Assembly: GCA_964654465.1 (NCBI GenBank)
Contig: CAZZIO010000068.1
Span: 1 to 19,359, forward strand
From: an uncultured Dictyoglomota bacterium
Lineage (GTDB): Bacteria > Dictyoglomota > Dictyoglomia > Dictyoglomales > Dictyoglomaceae
Direction of reading: 5' to 3'
Length of the DNA: 19,359 bases
Below the pieces are notes generated by a model. That model worked only from the letters and a program-made list of their open reading frames with translations, was not told where the DNA came from and searched no databases. Made by a program: the position numbers and the translations under genes. This document shows positions 14,406 to 19,359 of the stretch, one piece after another; within the stretch, counting starts at the first letter, position 1, and each line of letters starts with the position of its first letter.

Positions 14406-14972
14406 TTATTTTTTCCTCAAATAGTCTATCAAATCGTTCAACTGCTTTTTATACATAGTTACGTGATAAAAAGGATTTAATGGTTGTCCTTTACTCCATG
14501 CTTCCATAAATTTTTGAAATTCCTGTCTCTCTTTCTCAGAAACATTTTGTGGTCCTCTCCATTGAGGATTAACTTGCCCCTGACTTATCTGTGAACCTTG
14601 AGGATTTTGTTGCAACTTTTGCCTTATTTCTTCAAATCTTTTTTGCCTTTCTATTTGTAATTTGTCAAGATAGGTTATTTGCTCATCAGTTAAAACAGTC
14701 TCAATCCTTGATATAAATTTATCAGCCTCCTTCTTGGGAAGCATATTTGTTTTAAGAAGCTCCTGTAGGATAGGAATAAGTTTTTGAGCCTGGTTTTTTG
14801 TAATAGCCACCTTCTTATCTTTATCAAGCTCTCTTAAATCCCTTATTAATCTTATAAGATATTGAACTTCTTGAGACATAAAATTTCTTCTTTGTTGTTG
14901 AGTTTGGGTTTGAGGATATACTAAGGTTATTAGTAATATAACGAACAACATTAAAGTAATTAGTCTCTTCAT
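14406..14972 (-). CDS. Exported hypothetical helical protein with Gln-rich linker
   Basis: Start moved to ATG 14972 (SD AAGGAGG at 14987-14981). Signal peptide [33 protein letters not shown] and LTDEQ motifs, Q/G/P-rich segment and NPF motif. Confidence 0.7.
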
Positions 14973-14988
14973 GGCATTTACCTCCTTA

Positions 14989-16209
14989 TTATTCATACCT
15001 CAAAGCCTCTATAGGATTCAATTTAGAAGCTCTTCTTGCAGGATAATAACCAAAAAATATACCAACCAATGCAGATACTGTAAACGATAAGATTATAGGA
15101 TTTAATGTTACAACAGCAGAAAGACCAGAAAATGATTTTATAATTTGTGCTAAGAAAATACCTAATAAAATACCCACTATCCCACCTACTACTGACACAA
15201 TTACTGATTCTAAGAGAAATTGCAAAAGAATATATCCAGATTTTGCTCCTACAGCTTTTCTTATACCTATTTCTTTTATTCTTTCTGTAACGTTGACCAA
15301 CATTATATTCATAATACCTATTCCACCAACTAAAAGGGAAATAGCCGCTATTCCTGCAAGAAAGAGAGTTAATGTTTGCATTGACTGATTCAAAGAAGAA
15401 AGAATAGTTAATTGATTCTGTACTACAAAATCATCTTCATCGGGATTTGTTATCTTATGCTTTTTTCTTATTATTTCCTCAATCCGGGTTTGAAGATCAT
15501 CCATGACATCAGGACTTACAGCAGAAATATATATATTGTTTAAAAAATTTCCTCCTTGAATTTTACGCTGAAAGGTAGTTAAAGGTATAAATATCATATC
15601 ATCCAAGTTAGCAAATCCGCCTAATTGTCCTTGAGGTTCAAGAATTCCTATAACTTTAAATGTTATTCCAGCTATTTTTATACTTTGACCCACAGGGTCC
15701 TCATTCCCAAAAAGAGTTTCGGCAACAGAAGATCCCAATACTGCTACTTTTTTACTCCCCCTATAATCCTCTTCACTGAAGAAATCTCCTTCCTTTAACT
15801 TTATCTCTCTCACCCTCATATAATCAGCAGAAGTACCAATAACTTGAGTATTAGAATTTGATGCCTTATACTTTACCTGAACATTTCTGTTTGCATAAGG
15901 TACTATAGCTACTACTTTTGAACTGTCCAACTCTTCTTTAAGAGCTTCATAGTCATCATTAGTAATAGAACTTCGAGGTGCTCCTCTTACAAGCCCAACT
16001 CCTCTACCAAATCGTGGAAAAACAGTAAGAAGGTTAGACCCAAGAGATGTAAACTGCTTTTCAATAGAATATTTAGTACCCTCTCCTAAGGATACTAAAG
16101 TTACTACAGCTGCGACTCCTATTATTATCCCAAGAGTTGTAAGAAATGTTCTTAATTTATTTGACGAAAAGCTATAAAGGGCCATCTTTAGTATCTCTAC
16201 AATCATCAT
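14989..16209 (-). CDS. MacB/FtsX-family ABC transporter permease (no fused ATPase)
   Basis: NKLRTFLTTLGIIIGVAAV, large periplasmic domain, SLLVGGIGIMNIMLVNVTERIKEIGIRKAVGA and YPARRASKLNPIEALRYE. Confidence 0.95.
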   Translation of the reverse strand: MMIVEILKMALYSFSSNKLRTFLTTLGIIIGVAAVVTLVSLGEGTKYSIEKQFTSLGSNLLTVFPRFGRGVGLVRGAPRSSITNDDYEALKEELDSSKVVAIVPYANRNVQVKYKASNSNTQVIGTSADYMRVREIKLKEGDFFSEEDYRGSKKVAVLGSSVAETLFGNEDPVGQSIKIAGITFKVIGILEPQGQLGGFANLDDMIFIPLTTFQRKIQGGNFLNNIYISAVSPDVMDDLQTRIEEIIRKKHKITNPDEDDFVVQNQLTILSSLNQSMQTLTLFLAGIAAISLLVGGIGIMNIMLVNVTERIKEIGIRKAVGAKSGYILLQFLLESVIVSVVGGIVGILLGIFLAQIIKSFSGLSAVVTLNPIILSFTVSALVGIFFGYYPARRASKLNPIEALRYE

Positions 16210-16220
16210 AGTTATTACAC

Positions 16221-17519
16221 CTACCTTAAAGGAACCCCTGGAATTCTTATTTGCATTTGCTGGTTTGTAGATCTTGATGTACTGCTTGATGATGATAAAA
16301 CAATAACATCACCTTCTTTAAGACCACTTTCCACAATCACATTTGTACCATCGTCTTCTCCCAAAGTGACCCTAACAAGTTCAGTGTTTCCGTTTCCTTT
16401 AAGGATTTCTACATAACTTCTTCTTTCTGTCTTTTTTATAGCTCTAAGGGGTATTAATAAAACATTCTTCTTCTCTAAAAGAATAATATCCCCATCAGCA
16501 CTCATCCCTACTTTTAATTTTAAACCAGGATTAGGTATTTTAACCCTTACCTTAAATATAGGTATATTATTTGAAATAGTTGCAACAGGAGATATCCTAA
16601 TTACTTTTCCCTCAAATTCTTCATCAGGAAAAGCATCTAAAGTAACTCTTACAGGTAGACCCAAAGAAACTTTTCCTATATCTGTCTCATCTACTTCTAA
16701 ACTTAATTCCACATTATCTGTATCCAGTAGCGTCATTAGAACAGTATTATTTGAAATTATTTGGCCATTTACTACTTTCACATTAGACACAATTCCAGAA
16801 AAGGGTGCTTTTATAATAGTATTTTCTAAGTTTTTTTTCGCATTTTGTAAATCCAATTTTGCCTTTTCAAAAGAAAGTCTACTTGTTTCAAGATCTTTTT
16901 GTAAATTTTTAAGTTGATTATCATAATTACTTTTCACGGTCTTTAAATTTGTTTCTGCTTGCATATATGAATTCTTTGCTTTTTCCGAAGTTAGTCTAGC
17001 ATTATCCAAATCACTCTGTGAAGCAAACCCCTTTTCAAAAAGTCCTTTAATCCTTTCTAAATTCTTCTCAGCATTTTTATATTCCAAAAATGCATTATCT
17101 CTACTTATTTGAGCATCACTTAAGTTTTTATCTAAATTTCTTTTTTGTGTTTCATAATTAAGTTTTGCTTGTTCATAGGAGTTTTCAGCATTTTTATAAG
17201 AAATTAATGCTTGATTATAGGATATTTGATAATCTGTAGGATCAACTTTTACAAGAATATCTCCTGCTTTCACTTTTTTACCTTCTTCTATCACATATAT
17301 GACTGTCCCTGATACTTTACTGACAATATCAAGACTTCTCTCAGCCTCGAGCATTCCACTGCCAGATACCGTTACTAAAAGATCTCCTCTTTGTACAGTA
17401 TATGTGGTAATTGTAGTTTTATTTGAAGAAGTTTTTGAATTTCTACCAAAAATACTCCATGATCCTATAATTACAACTAAAATAGCTATAACAATGATTA
17501 ATATACTTTTCTTTTTCAT
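16221..17519 (-). CDS. MacA/HlyD-like periplasmic adaptor protein
   Basis: N-terminal anchor, lipoyl halves (VSGTV..EGKKVKAGDIL; IKAPFSGIV), long alpha-hairpin with R-x3-L-x6-S tip, VDETDI, GMSA and SGLKEGD. Confidence 0.93.
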   Translation of the reverse strand: MKKKSILIIVIAILVVIIGSWSIFGRNSKTSSNKTTITTYTVQRGDLLVTVSGSGMLEAERSLDIVSKVSGTVIYVIEEGKKVKAGDILVKVDPTDYQISYNQALISYKNAENSYEQAKLNYETQKRNLDKNLSDAQISRDNAFLEYKNAEKNLERIKGLFEKGFASQSDLDNARLTSEKAKNSYMQAETNLKTVKSNYDNQLKNLQKDLETSRLSFEKAKLDLQNAKKNLENTIIKAPFSGIVSNVKVVNGQIISNNTVLMTLLDTDNVELSLEVDETDIGKVSLGLPVRVTLDAFPDEEFEGKVIRISPVATISNNIPIFKVRVKIPNPGLKLKVGMSADGDIILLEKKNVLLIPLRAIKKTERRSYVEILKGNGNTELVRVTLGEDDGTNVIVESGLKEGDVIVLSSSSSTSRSTNQQMQIRIPGVPLR

Positions 17520-18565
17520 TTTTTAACTTCTCCTCCTTCGAAAAGTACTTTTCCTACAGAGATAGAAAGATTGTCTAAATTTTTAAAATATGTGTGCAAA
17601 GAAGAATAATAATTGTTTTCAGCCTTTATTAAATTTATTTCAGCATTCATTAGATCTAATTTCGTTATTAATCCAGCTTCAAATCGCGTTTTTGTAATAT
17701 TGTAATTCTCTTTAGCAAGATCCAAATTAATCTTTTGTAATTCTACTTCCTTCAAACTTGCATACAATTGGTCTAACCTTTGAGCTATAGTTAATTTTGT
17801 ACTATTCAATACCTGTTCTAAATTCATCTTTGCACTTTCCAATGAATTTTGGGATGACAAAAGAGTTGCTTTTGGTGTATATTCATTATTATAAAGCTTT
17901 ACTTGTAAATTATAGAGTTCAACATTATTACTTGCCTGTACAATATTTGTTAAATTCTCTTTTGCAAGATTAAAAAGATTATCCAACGTAAAGTTAAAAA
18001 CTACAAGATCTGGCTCTTTGAGGGTTATATTTTCCATAGGAGAGACCCCCAAGGTTTGCCAAAACTGACTCCAAGTTATAGCGAGATTATTCTCTGCTGA
18101 TTTTAACATATTTTGAGCAGACAAATAATTTATTTCTGCCTGTTTAACATCAGTGGCAGTTGCATTACCTAACTGAAATTTTAGCTTTACTGCATTCAGA
18201 TTTTCAAGATAATATTCTACTTGTTTTTTATATAATTTAACTTGTGCTTGTGCTTCTAAGACAGAAAAATAAGCATTTCTAACACTTTGAATTACTTGAA
18301 TTCTTGTATTATTATATTTTACCTGTTCAAGCTTTACATTTAATTCTGCTTGCTTTAAAGAGAGTATTAAAGTAGTTGGATCTTTCTTTTTATTTTCATA
18401 ATCAAAAACTGCATTATCCAAATTTATTTTCGCTACCAAAATATCTTTATTATTTTTTAAAGCAATATTTACTGCTTCATCAAAAGTTAATATCTTTAAT
18501 TCTTGAGAATAGCCTAACGTAAGAACCAAAAATGTTAAAACTAAAAAAGCCAATACTTTTCTCAT
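17516..18565 (-). CDS. Short TolC-family protein (alpha-helical repeats, apparently lacking beta-barrel strands)
   Basis: Signal peptide and two OEP repeats (LTFDEAVNIALKNN...VRNAYFSVL...KFQLGNATATDV; ...RFEAGLITKLDLMNAE). Only 349 aa. Confidence 0.85.
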   Translation of the reverse strand: MRKVLAFLVLTFLVLTLGYSQELKILTFDEAVNIALKNNKDILVAKINLDNAVFDYENKKKDPTTLILSLKQAELNVKLEQVKYNNTRIQVIQSVRNAYFSVLEAQAQVKLYKKQVEYYLENLNAVKLKFQLGNATATDVKQAEINYLSAQNMLKSAENNLAITWSQFWQTLGVSPMENITLKEPDLVVFNFTLDNLFNLAKENLTNIVQASNNVELYNLQVKLYNNEYTPKATLLSSQNSLESAKMNLEQVLNSTKLTIAQRLDQLYASLKEVELQKINLDLAKENYNITKTRFEAGLITKLDLMNAEINLIKAENNYYSSLHTYFKNLDNLSISVGKVLFEGGEVKK

Positions 18566-19359
18566 AGTAGATTACCCCCTAAATTTCCAAGAAGATTAGT
18601 TAATTGGACTCTTAAAAGATTATAATTTAAAATAGCATCTTCAAGATCATACTTGGCCTGTATAAATTCTATTTCATAACTCTTTAAATCCAAATCTGTA
18701 ATTAAGCCCAAACTATACCTTATCTTTTGAGCCTCAAAATTTAGTCTCTTTTGTTCTAAGGCAATCTCTTTCTGTTTTATAACGGATTGAGCTTGAATTA
18801 GATTATAATAGGTCTTCCAGAAATTAAGTTCTACCTCTTTCTTAGTTTTCTCAAAATTAATCCGCGTTTGTTTCAAGGAAAGTTCTGCTTGTGTTTTATT
18901 TATATTACTACTTCCTCCATCCAAGATAGGAATACTAAACTGAATCTTGATATTCCATGACTCTTTACTCGAACTTATTGTATCTCCAAAAGTTTGATCT
19001 GTATTAAATGATAAAAGATAGTTTTTTGTATTAAAGGAGGCATTATAAGATGCATTTCCAGTATTGTAATTTCCACTAAATGAGATACCCCAAGATGGAA
19101 GATATGCTTTATCTAAATTAAGCTTACTTTTTTCTAATTCTAAGCTCGCATTTTTTACACTTAAATTATTAGTATAAAGTTTACTCAAAAGATCTTCAGG
19201 TTTGTCTTCTATTTCATCATATTTAATATCAATTTTTACCGGAACTCTTGGTAAGGTTGTTCCTAAAAGATTTTCAAGGGACTTATATGCTAATTCTAAA
19301 TTACTTTTTGCTGAGTTATAATTAGTCTCTGCCAATTTTTCCCTTTGTTTATAATCCAA
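18562..19359 (-). CDS. TolC-family outer membrane protein, 5'-truncated by window edge
   Basis: Second OEP repeat with YLP...FSIPILDGG beta region, YYNLIQA and RYSLGLITDLDL. The ORF runs off the window, so the listed 'M' is an edge artefact. Confidence 0.88.
   Translation of the reverse strand: MDYKQREKLAETNYNSAKSNLELAYKSLENLLGTTLPRVPVKIDIKYDEIEDKPEDLLSKLYTNNLSVKNASLELEKSKLNLDKAYLPSWGISFSGNYNTGNASYNASFNTKNYLLSFNTDQTFGDTISSSKESWNIKIQFSIPILDGGSSNINKTQAELSLKQTRINFEKTKKEVELNFWKTYYNLIQAQSVIKQKEIALEQKRLNFEAQKIRYSLGLITDLDLKSYEIEFIQAKYDLEDAILNYNLLRVQLTNLLGNLGGNLL

Follow-up and report, generated by a model that had tools for sequence, protein, structure and literature searches.

The only efflux pump of a heat-loving Dictyoglomota bacterium is encoded in an operon with two TolC paralogues, one of which, TolC-B, is predicted to be a complete TolC alpha-domain that lacks strands. 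TolC-B is conserved, and its pairing with a barrel-bearing paralogue, TolC-A, is 1:1 and obligate. The pairing recurs in several deep-branching bacterial groups and points to an undescribed four-part pump. We favor, at somewhat less than even odds, a MacB-type exporter of four components in which a TolC-B trimer would be a soluble alpha-tube stacked between the adaptor (MFP) hexamer and the TolC-A trimer and would make the duct longer in lineages with a wide periplasm. A paralogue that is conserved and widespread, with the tunnel kept and the barrel lost, implies a pump architecture that is undescribed, be it a duct of twice the length or a channel of mixed subunits.

An exporter operon with two TolC paralogues

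The analyzed window, 19,359 nt in length, is the whole of contig C68. Its last 141 nt are identical to the first 141 nt of contig C15, on which the adjoining MacB-like ATPase gene sits. Joining the contigs yields TolC-A as an in-frame protein of 447 aa with an N-terminal hydrophobic leader. Gene order in the operon is ATPase, TolC-A, TolC-B, MFP, MacB-type permease, and a conserved 196-aa protein, and ORF calls place overlaps of 4 nt at both the TolC-A/TolC-B and TolC-B/MFP junctions. Features in the window are as follows:

18562..19359, minus strand: C-terminal part (265 codons) of TolC-A, the OMF that has the barrel; ORF open at the window end (Pfam OEP, 1.4e-26)
17516..18565, minus strand: TolC-B, a barrel-less OEP paralogue of 349 aa (Pfam OEP); its start overlaps the stop of TolC-A by 4 nt
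18503..18565, minus strand: TolC-B residues 1-21, an N-terminal hydrophobic leader without a lipobox Cys, a putative export signal recognized by eye
18368..18382, minus strand: TolC-B turn 1, residues 62-66, D-P-T-T-L, in place of beta-hairpin 1 (alignment and AF2)
17873..17890, minus strand: TolC-B turn 2, residues 226-231, N-N-E-Y-T-P, in place of beta-hairpin 2 (alignment and AF2)
16221..17519, minus strand: membrane-fusion (adaptor) protein, MFP, of 432 aa (Pfam, NCBIfam); its start overlaps the stop of TolC-B by 4 nt
14989..16209, minus strand: MacB-type permease of 406 aa with FtsX fold and periplasmic core domain (Pfam MacB_PCD, 1.3e-53; FtsX, 6.5e-23)
14406..14996, minus strand: conserved 196-aa protein with hydrophobic N-terminus, last gene of the operon; no family

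A MacB-like ATPase, an FtsX-fold permease with a periplasmic core domain, a HlyD/MacA adaptor, and an OMF, all in one operon, identify a MacB-type exporter. The operon deviates from the scheme of exactly three periplasm-spanning component types with one OMF, as it has two OMF paralogues that are always paired. The permease matches the NCBIfam MacB equivalog model at 1.2e-78, which is under that model's cut-off. The MFP matches NCBIfam RND_mfp (8.8e-61) and Pfam HlyD_D23, HlyD_3, Biotin_lipoyl (residues 62-91), and Biotin_lipoyl_2 (residues 236-263). Its two lipoyl half-domains are separated by ∼144 residues, read as a long alpha-hairpin (segment 92-235), and midway along this segment is an R-x3-L-x6-S match (156-167), which we take to be the R-L-S-like motif of adaptor tips. 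The 196-aa protein has no Pfam or NCBIfam family, with only chance-level matches at E ≤ 10, and its homologues occupy the equivalent position in Dictyoglomota and Deinococcota loci.

Fold of TolC-B and of its barrel-bearing partner

TolC-B matches Pfam OEP (PF02321) in two stretches (4.6e-32), and a genome scan likewise finds two OEP matches in its frame. Aligned to a hairpin-bearing relative of 421 aa (P0032), it shows gaps of 41 and 38 columns exactly at the two hairpin slots. In the AF2 monomer (21-row alignment; pLDDT 92.3, pTM 0.83), helices span residues 40-61, 67-131, 137-172, 206-225, 232-296, and 302-337, and turns occupy 62-66 and 226-231. The long helices, of 65, 36, 65, and 36 residues, and an equatorial segment conform to the alpha-barrel of OMFs, and the only two strands are equatorial and three residues each. 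A canonical TolC-class OMF has four transmembrane beta-strands per subunit; in their place, TolC-B has turns of 5-6 residues and no strands. Lacking beta-hairpins, TolC-B is therefore predicted to lack a membrane part. Tip turns of the G-x-x-[ST]-x-x-D type are kept at residues 133-139 and 298-304, and the leader is modeled as a helix at 2-17, with pLDDT < 50 at 17-21. A Foldseek search with the model gave 44 matches at E ≤ 0.001, all to OMFs, with a TolC (9tg4_A) being the best (5.8e-12, TMq 0.71).

TolC-A is predicted to retain the barrel. Pfam OEP matches are present on both contig halves of its gene, and since the protein of the window spans two contigs, strands were counted in an AF2 model of an 87% identical relative, the TolC-A of locus L004. 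Both slots of the model are stranded, with 2 + 4 strands or six per subunit, and pLDDT in the second slot is 69-86. By eye, all four slot-2 strands of the window TolC-A show alternating hydrophobic residues. In a MAFFT L-INS-i alignment, used for slot lengths because hmmalign with the TolC-B profile misaligned hairpin-bearing proteins, the median slot 2 is 77 residues in A-type partners of the first TolC-B subfamily (n = 54) and 78 in those of the second (n = 17; at least 71 residues in 16), versus 54 in 58 generic OEPs, a difference of ∼23 residues. The initial annotation had described hairpin slots cut to a few residues and intact helical motifs in the 349-aa protein, and a strand-rich upstream gene overlapping it by 4 nt. 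The alignment and the all-helical model without normal beta-hairpins, the ORF calls, recovery of the full upstream gene through the C15 overlap, and the six-stranded L004 model confirm this observation. Its estimate of about 60 residues in the TolC-A slot, taken as extra residues between common anchors, is correct for slot 2 (73 vs. 13; slot 1, 59 vs. 15).

The strand count raises the possibility that TolC-A and TolC-B assemble into one TolC-like trimer, most simply A2B, in which 6 + 6 strands would form a 12-strand barrel and four helices per subunit a 12-helix tunnel. We consider a mixed trimer rather unlikely, but it stays a rival because two times six strands equals 12. The predicted 2 + 4 strands, the alternating hydrophobic residues, and a slot 2 that is long in partners of both subfamilies are consistent with co-assembly, as are helices of nearly equal length (67/36 residues in the L004 model of TolC-A vs. 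65/36 in TolC-B). Conversely, the genes are 1:1 with a 4-nt overlap and not 2:1, and the turns of TolC-B are polar or charged and fixed in length. Geometric reasoning suggests that the two TolC-A sheets would have to shift in opposite directions by ∼30 degrees over the TolC-B sector with linkers of only 4-7 residues, whereas an A3 barrel, with 18 strands at a lower tilt, would fit a 12-helix tunnel unstrained. The summed slots are also similar in A-type partners (54 + 77) and generic OEPs (69 + 54), thus the extra length of TolC-A may partly reflect relocation of a loop. A specific history, in which a gene duplicated long ago and its copies diverged, one losing all four strands and the other acquiring two more to leave an asymmetric A2B heterotrimer, is unlikely; if true, A2B would be the first heteromeric, symmetry-broken channel of the TolC class.

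Conservation of TolC-B and its pairing with TolC-A

TolC-B is widespread, with 721 representatives (clusters) at E ≤ 1e-30. Among the best 150 rows of the search, 105 are barrel-less in both slots; another 43 with one slot short were set aside, as alignment to the TolC-B profile misplaces hairpin-bearing proteins. Across 61 B-type relatives from Dictyoglomota, Deinococcota, and unclassified MAGs, slot 1 is 15 residues in 59 and slot 2 is 13 residues in all 61. In alignment A2, D62 and T65 of turn 1 are nearly invariant and N227 and T230 of turn 2 are invariant; T230, P231, and Y229 rank 12th, 18th, and 25th of 319 positions across 101 barrel-less representatives. Fixed slot lengths and highly conserved turn-2 residues argue for a functional end instead of a decaying remnant. 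Loss of the hairpins, taken alone, could mark TolC-B as a decaying or non-functional duplicate of TolC-A. With an intact frame, a confidently modeled fold, and slot lengths constant across phyla, conservation already contradicts this reading, and we regard it as extremely improbable.

Named lineages with TolC-B are Dictyoglomota and Deinococcota, plus Atribacteria and Bacillota MAGs. The latter two, labels that rest on MAG names, contribute the second subfamily, which also adjoins a long-slot OEP and occurs in several gene orders. A tree of 99 rows, a subset with hairpin columns retained that includes 19 of 55 genome loci, 16 protein ids, 12 of 17 distinct partners, and 28 of 58 generic OEPs, recovers TolC-B with 16-residue turns and TolC-B with 18-residue turns as separate clades (support of 100 and 98, respectively). 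At its deep forks, the tree neither supports nor rejects a single origin of TolC-B or of A-type partners. The long slot 2 may be one inherited trait, a point against a mixed trimer.

Of 49 loci with 1.3 kb or more of DNA upstream of TolC-B, 48 have an A-type gene as the direct upstream neighbor, and the sole exception (L037) carries an N-run there. Six genomes scanned for OEP genes have nine A-B pairs and no solitary OEP. Every barrel-bearing OEP gene in them adjoins a B-type gene, and the absence of any A-type gene without TolC-B is also what a mixed trimer would predict. The expectation that the two genes co-occur elsewhere was borne out with almost no exception. The pair is kept across four gene orders and beside RND pumps (L070 and L071). 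In the L010 lineage, it is intact though no pump gene is adjacent, and is preceded by ECF sigma, anti-sigma, RseB-like, and DegP-like genes, an envelope-stress setting.

Obligate pairing with TolC-A and not with any one pump type, along with the envelope-stress setting, could indicate that TolC-B is an accessory of TolC-A outside the conduit. It might, for example, help to assemble or hold TolC-A in the periplasm, or act as a gate or decoy, closing off the adaptor tube or the TolC-A entrance in an idle pump. Such a role is doubtful. A full alpha-barrel and both canonical tip turns are kept over very long evolutionary distances and exceed the needs of a chaperone or cap, and the adaptor gene immediately follows TolC-B in 34 of 47 testable loci.

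Long ORFs at L033, L052, and L054 (788, 764, and 733 aa, respectively) were considered as A-B fusions and rejected. The first is an over-extended high-GC frame, with TolC-A in another frame and TolC-B with its own leader, and at the other two loci the profile census shows an A-type ORF of its own. A search for natural MFP-B or A-B fusions among longer proteins gave three weak, unrelated matches of 8000 scored candidates, a result that weighs slightly against a stacked duct.

A proposed stacked duct and known systems

In the favored arrangement, the exit duct would consist of two TolC paralogues in series, with TolC-A as the outer-membrane channel. TolC-B would be exported to the periplasm and trimerize into a TolC-like 12-helix alpha-barrel of ∼100 Å with no membrane part. 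Its lower end, which has canonical OMF helix-turn-helix tips, would dock on the adaptor hexamer at its tip. Its upper end would be a crown of six tight alpha-hairpins with D-P-T-T and N-[DE]-[YF]-T-P turns, docking tip-to-tip on the periplasmic tips of the TolC-A trimer, as the adaptor hexamer normally does. The resulting duct would be ∼10 nm longer and could suit lineages in which the outer membrane is far from the inner membrane. The long hairpin of the adaptor also counts toward a stacked, lengthened duct.

A three-copy prediction of TolC-B (residues 22-345, alignment A2), run without controls, scored 0.00 in both runs and speaks neither for nor against a trimer. Other observations are less readily accommodated. 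D-P and T-P are common helix N-caps, and the turns of TolC-B start with them, so their conservation may be structural and not reflect an interface. A stack does not explain the extra predicted hairpin of A-type partners, which a mixed trimer could. The initial annotation had proposed co-assembly or, alternatively, a periplasmic extension or plug. Its interpretation is partly supported overall. A periplasmic extension agrees with the data no less well than co-assembly and is ranked first, and a plug gains no specific support.

Envelopes of these lineages have been described. Dictyoglomi and Deinococcus-Thermus form rotund bodies with a common outer membrane, and the envelope of Atribacteria is atypical (PMC10665443). 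The periplasm of Thermus is "extraordinarily wide" and the length of PilQ may have adapted to it (PMC4463427, PMC12024867). The PilQ secretin of Thermus thermophilus is a precedent for an envelope-spanning machine that is lengthened where the periplasm is very wide, but it belongs to an unrelated family and has extra domains in one chain, versus a second paralogous ring in the proposed stack (PMC4463427). Among the lineages considered here, a wide envelope is documented for Thermus alone.

Features shared with TolC/OprM (PF02321) are two OEP repeats, helices H2/H3/H4 and H6/H7/H8, 65-residue long helices, an equatorial segment, and Gly-containing periplasmic tip turns. In contrast, TolC-B is without beta-hairpins, the prediction for TolC-A is six strands per subunit versus four, and both score 93-97 bits against the NCBIfam TolC subfamily model, far under its cut-off of 225. 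Common to the operon and MacAB-TolC are a separate MacB-like ATPase, a permease with the MacB periplasmic core, and a HlyD/MacA-type adaptor with an R-L-S-like tip. In contrast to MacAB-TolC, the operon has ATPase and permease as separate genes, two OMF paralogues, the extra 196-aa protein, and a longer adaptor hairpin. If stacked, the upper end of TolC-B would resemble the tube of the adaptor hexamer in geometry, as six alpha-hairpin tips on an open cylinder, but fold and origin differ and by eye its turns have no R-L-S motif.

All solved TolC-class ducts that we found are of a single protein species with a barrel. A literature search, with subscription journals and supplements outside its coverage, returned no description of a TolC paralogue without a barrel, of an OMF with 18 strands, or of one that is heteromeric. 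The pairing bears on how deep-branching diderms, such as Deinococcota, Dictyoglomota, and Atribacteria, operate envelope-spanning machines where the outer membrane is wide or detached, and the question is directly testable, as Thermus and Deinococcus are harmless and can be cultured. In the accessible part of a report on Dictyoglomus turgidum, the same six-gene cluster as in the window is Dtur_0835-0840, listed as an ATPase, "two of TolC," HlyD, a permease, and a predicted transmembrane protein (PMC5167688). That part names both genes as TolC orthologues, is silent on barrel loss, and describes the cluster as identical in D. thermophilum and similar in Meiothermus and Thermus (PMC5167688).

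The operon and the contig join

Five ORFs follow one another on the minus strand of the window, with 4-nt overlaps at the A/B and B/adaptor junctions. The first of these overlaps had been reported in the initial annotation and is seen in the ORF coordinates.

18562..19359, minus: A, C-terminal part; ORF of 265 codons, open at the window end; Pfam OEP (PF02321)
17516..18565, minus: B; 349-aa ORF; Pfam OEP (PF02321)
16221..17519, minus: adaptor; 432-aa ORF; Pfam HlyD/CusB adaptor domains
14989..16209, minus: permease; 406-aa ORF; Pfam MacB_PCD and FtsX
14406..14996, minus: 196-aa protein; no Pfam or NCBIfam family

The window is the entire contig C68, and comparison of contig ends placed its positions 19219-19359 on positions 1-141 of a second contig, C15 (141 nt, identical). 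Read through this join, A is an unbroken 447-aa protein with a hydrophobic leader, and a 239-aa MacB/LolD-like ATPase is encoded immediately upstream of it on C15. Because the join is in frame inside A and restores the synteny of relatives, the assembly break sits within gene A, and the operon order is ATPase, A, B, adaptor, permease, 196-aa protein. The Dictyoglomus genome paper, in its account of this gene cluster, places it at Dtur_0835-0840 in D. turgidum, including "two of TolC", reports that D. thermophilum has an identical cluster and that Meiothermus and Thermus have a similar one, and calls both genes simply TolC orthologues (PMC5167688). The nearest named relatives of B are Dictyoglomaceae proteins (57-93% identity).

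The 196-aa protein (14406-14996, minus) begins with a hydrophobic stretch, while the rest of its chain is Gln-rich and looks helical, and it is kept as the final operon gene in Dictyoglomota and Deinococcota loci alike. Given this conserved place, it could serve as a fifth component of the pump or be a substrate.

Folds of B and of its partner

Both positions that hold a beta-hairpin in the two OEP repeats (slots 1 and 2) are reduced to a few residues in B, as first proposed from the sequence. Alignment with a hairpin-bearing relative leaves gaps of 41 and 38 columns exactly at the two slots, and the AF2 model (pLDDT 92.3, pTM 0.83, 21 aligned sequences) is all-helical, with no normal beta-hairpins and only two equatorial strands of three residues each. 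Turns of five (62-66) and six residues (226-231) link helices 40-61 to 67-131 and 206-225 to 232-296, respectively. In a Foldseek search of the PDB, all 44 matches at E ≤ 0.001 are TolC-class channels and all have a barrel, which B lacks (best match 9tg4_A, E 5.8e-12, TMq 0.71). The closest PDB entry by sequence is E. coli TolC (2.4e-6), and no solved structure within B's own family is apparent. By eye, B has a putative N-terminal leader. B belongs to the OEP family by sequence and fold, yet fails the family's defining membrane feature, and annotation as an outer-membrane channel is unsuitable for B.

Retrieval of full-length A upheld the suggestion that the upstream gene has longer slots: between common anchors, A has 59 and 73 residues and B has 15 and 13. 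Because A spans two contigs, a relative identical at 390 of 447 positions (locus L004) was folded as a stand-in. In this single AF2 monomer (pLDDT 89.0), slot 1 forms two long strands (64-80 and 83-101) and slot 2 forms four shorter strands (273-282, 285-292, 297-307, and 316-324; block pLDDT 69-86), in line with the extra beta-strands initially suspected in A, whose four slot-2 strands all show hydrophobic/polar alternation by eye. Slot 2 has a median of 77 residues (range 73-97) in 54 complete A-type partners from genomes and 78 in those from metagenome loci (at least 71 in 16 of 17), versus 54 in 58 generic OEPs (range 46-71 plus one at 96). Slot 1 shows the opposite trend, with medians of 54 and 49 in genome and metagenome partners versus 69 in generic OEPs. 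Judged from these lengths, the long slot 2 is a systematic trait of A-type partners. One Deinococcus A-type protein (L033:4151-5884) has a long proline-rich repeat segment behind its leader that is absent from Dictyoglomus-type A.

Distribution and gene settings of the pair

A scan by sequence pattern, with each species represented by a single genome, yielded 55 B loci which, by record title, belong to Dictyoglomota, unclassified "bacterium" MAGs (labels as deposited), and Deinococcota (Meiothermus, Calidithermus, Thermus, Deinococcus, and Trueperaceae). In a profile-based census, 59 of 61 B-type rows have 15 residues in slot 1, the remaining two being truncated, and all 61 have 13 in slot 2. 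The anticipated co-occurrence of barrel-less and strand-rich genes holds, as the end of an A-type gene adjoins the start of B in 48 of the 49 loci whose upstream DNA extends for 1.3 kb or more. The sole exception, L037, is uninformative because a run of N lies at that very place, just behind a leader-like start. In 34 of 47 testable loci, the gene after B encodes an adaptor. Five loci (L015, L018, L019, L031, and L035), of Deinococcales, Trueperaceae-type, and unclassified MAG hosts, have two A-B-adaptor sets on opposite strands, transcribed divergently, and the second A-B pair is far more divergent.

In the window's genome (99.97% complete), PF02321 matches are confined to A, B, and the coiled coil of the adaptor. 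Scans of five further genomes, with pairs judged by position, length of the frame, and extent of the profile match, found two A-B pairs and no other OEP locus in Meiothermus taiwanensis and Deinococcus rufus, two pairs plus one short extra match in a 266-aa frame in Thermus thalpophilus, and one pair and no other OEP locus in both a Dictyoglomaceae MAG and an L010-lineage MAG. On this sequence evidence, B is a conserved family that is always paired with an A-type gene across the informative loci and six scanned genomes.

When 1.84 billion representatives were scanned in full with the B profile (HMMER), 63,172 proteins scored E ≤ 0.001, and 721 of them reached E ≤ 1e-30. Both slots are short in 105 of 150 rows (the 149 best matches plus B), which share the turn-2 pattern N-[DE]-[YF]-T-P; in turn 1, the anchors enclose either 16 residues, with D-P-[ST]-T, or 18. 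The same scan recovered P0154, a 1246-aa protein in which three TolC-like units, each with hairpin slots, stand in tandem (six OEP repeats in all) and which may be a single-chain "trimer" channel.

The 18-residue form is labelled "TolC family protein" in Firmicutes/Bacillota and Atribacteria MAGs (names as deposited), and look-alike Atlas clusters are most frequent in Bacillota and Deinococcota. Of 52 metagenome loci with this form, the 34 with full-length matches (L059-L092) were analysed. A second, normal-length OEP gene is present in 24; in the other 10, B starts within ∼0.8 kb of a contig end or is cut, or the contig is shorter than 2.7 kb. Gene orders include adaptor-ATPase-permease-A-B, A-adaptor-ATPase-permease-B, A-ATPase...B, and B-A, and an RND transporter replaces MacB at two loci. 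At L070 (1604-5959) and L071, a 1451-aa ORF runs from an RND transporter into an A-type OEP, and a barrel-less B gene comes next. This ORF reflects either a true fusion or a missed stop codon. In the L010 lineage (unclassified MAG; L010:1832-7368), ECF sigma, zf-HC2 anti-sigma, RseB-like, and DegP-like genes precede the A-B pair and no pump gene adjoins it, which suggests envelope-stress control of the pair.

Proposed arrangement of A and B in the pump

In canonical pumps, the outer-membrane factor (OMF) has glycine-containing tip turns that mesh with adaptor tips. B keeps both turns (133-139 and 298-304) and retains all that a TolC subunit needs for a 12-helix tunnel. The adaptor has ∼144 residues between its lipoyl halves, with an R-x3-L-x6-S match at the centre of that segment (156-167). 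We tentatively favor a stacked duct, with a B trimer between an adaptor hexamer and an A trimer. Such a trimer of B would form an open cylinder with an upper rim of six tight alpha-hairpins and, since an adaptor hexamer presents the same geometry to TolC, this rim would dock on the periplasmic tips of A. The rim turns are invariant in length, and T230, P231, and Y229 rank 12th, 18th, and 25th in conservation among 319 positions. These conservation data contradict the idea that B is a decaying copy, which is extremely improbable.

The main rival, the initially suggested co-assembly of A and B in one trimer, is rather doubtful. It alone accounts for the partner's one extra hairpin (2 × 6 = 12 strands), but, on geometric reasoning, two identical A subunits would have to displace their sheets oppositely over B's sector, through linkers of only 4-7 residues. 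Moreover, a trimer of A could form a closed barrel of similar radius from 18 less tilted strands, and the long slot 2 may be a single inherited trait, the deep forks of the tree being open. The 1:1 gene ratio also counts against a mixed trimer and, with the overlapping genes, fits A3B3. An accessory role for B, as a holding factor or gate, is ranked lower still, as unlikely.

Among the open-access main texts searched, none describes a TolC paralogue without a barrel, an OMF with 18 strands, or an OMF of heteromeric make-up. The system resembles a MacAB-TolC pump in its working, with a fourth, duct-type component added. In favor of the stacked duct, the lineages with the A-B pair are ones with reported unusual or wide envelopes: Dictyoglomi and Deinococcus-Thermus are described as forming rotund bodies with one shared outer membrane and Atribacteria as having an atypical envelope (PMC10665443), and the Thermus periplasm is called "extraordinarily wide", with PilQ length plausibly adapted to that width (PMC4463427; PMC12024867).
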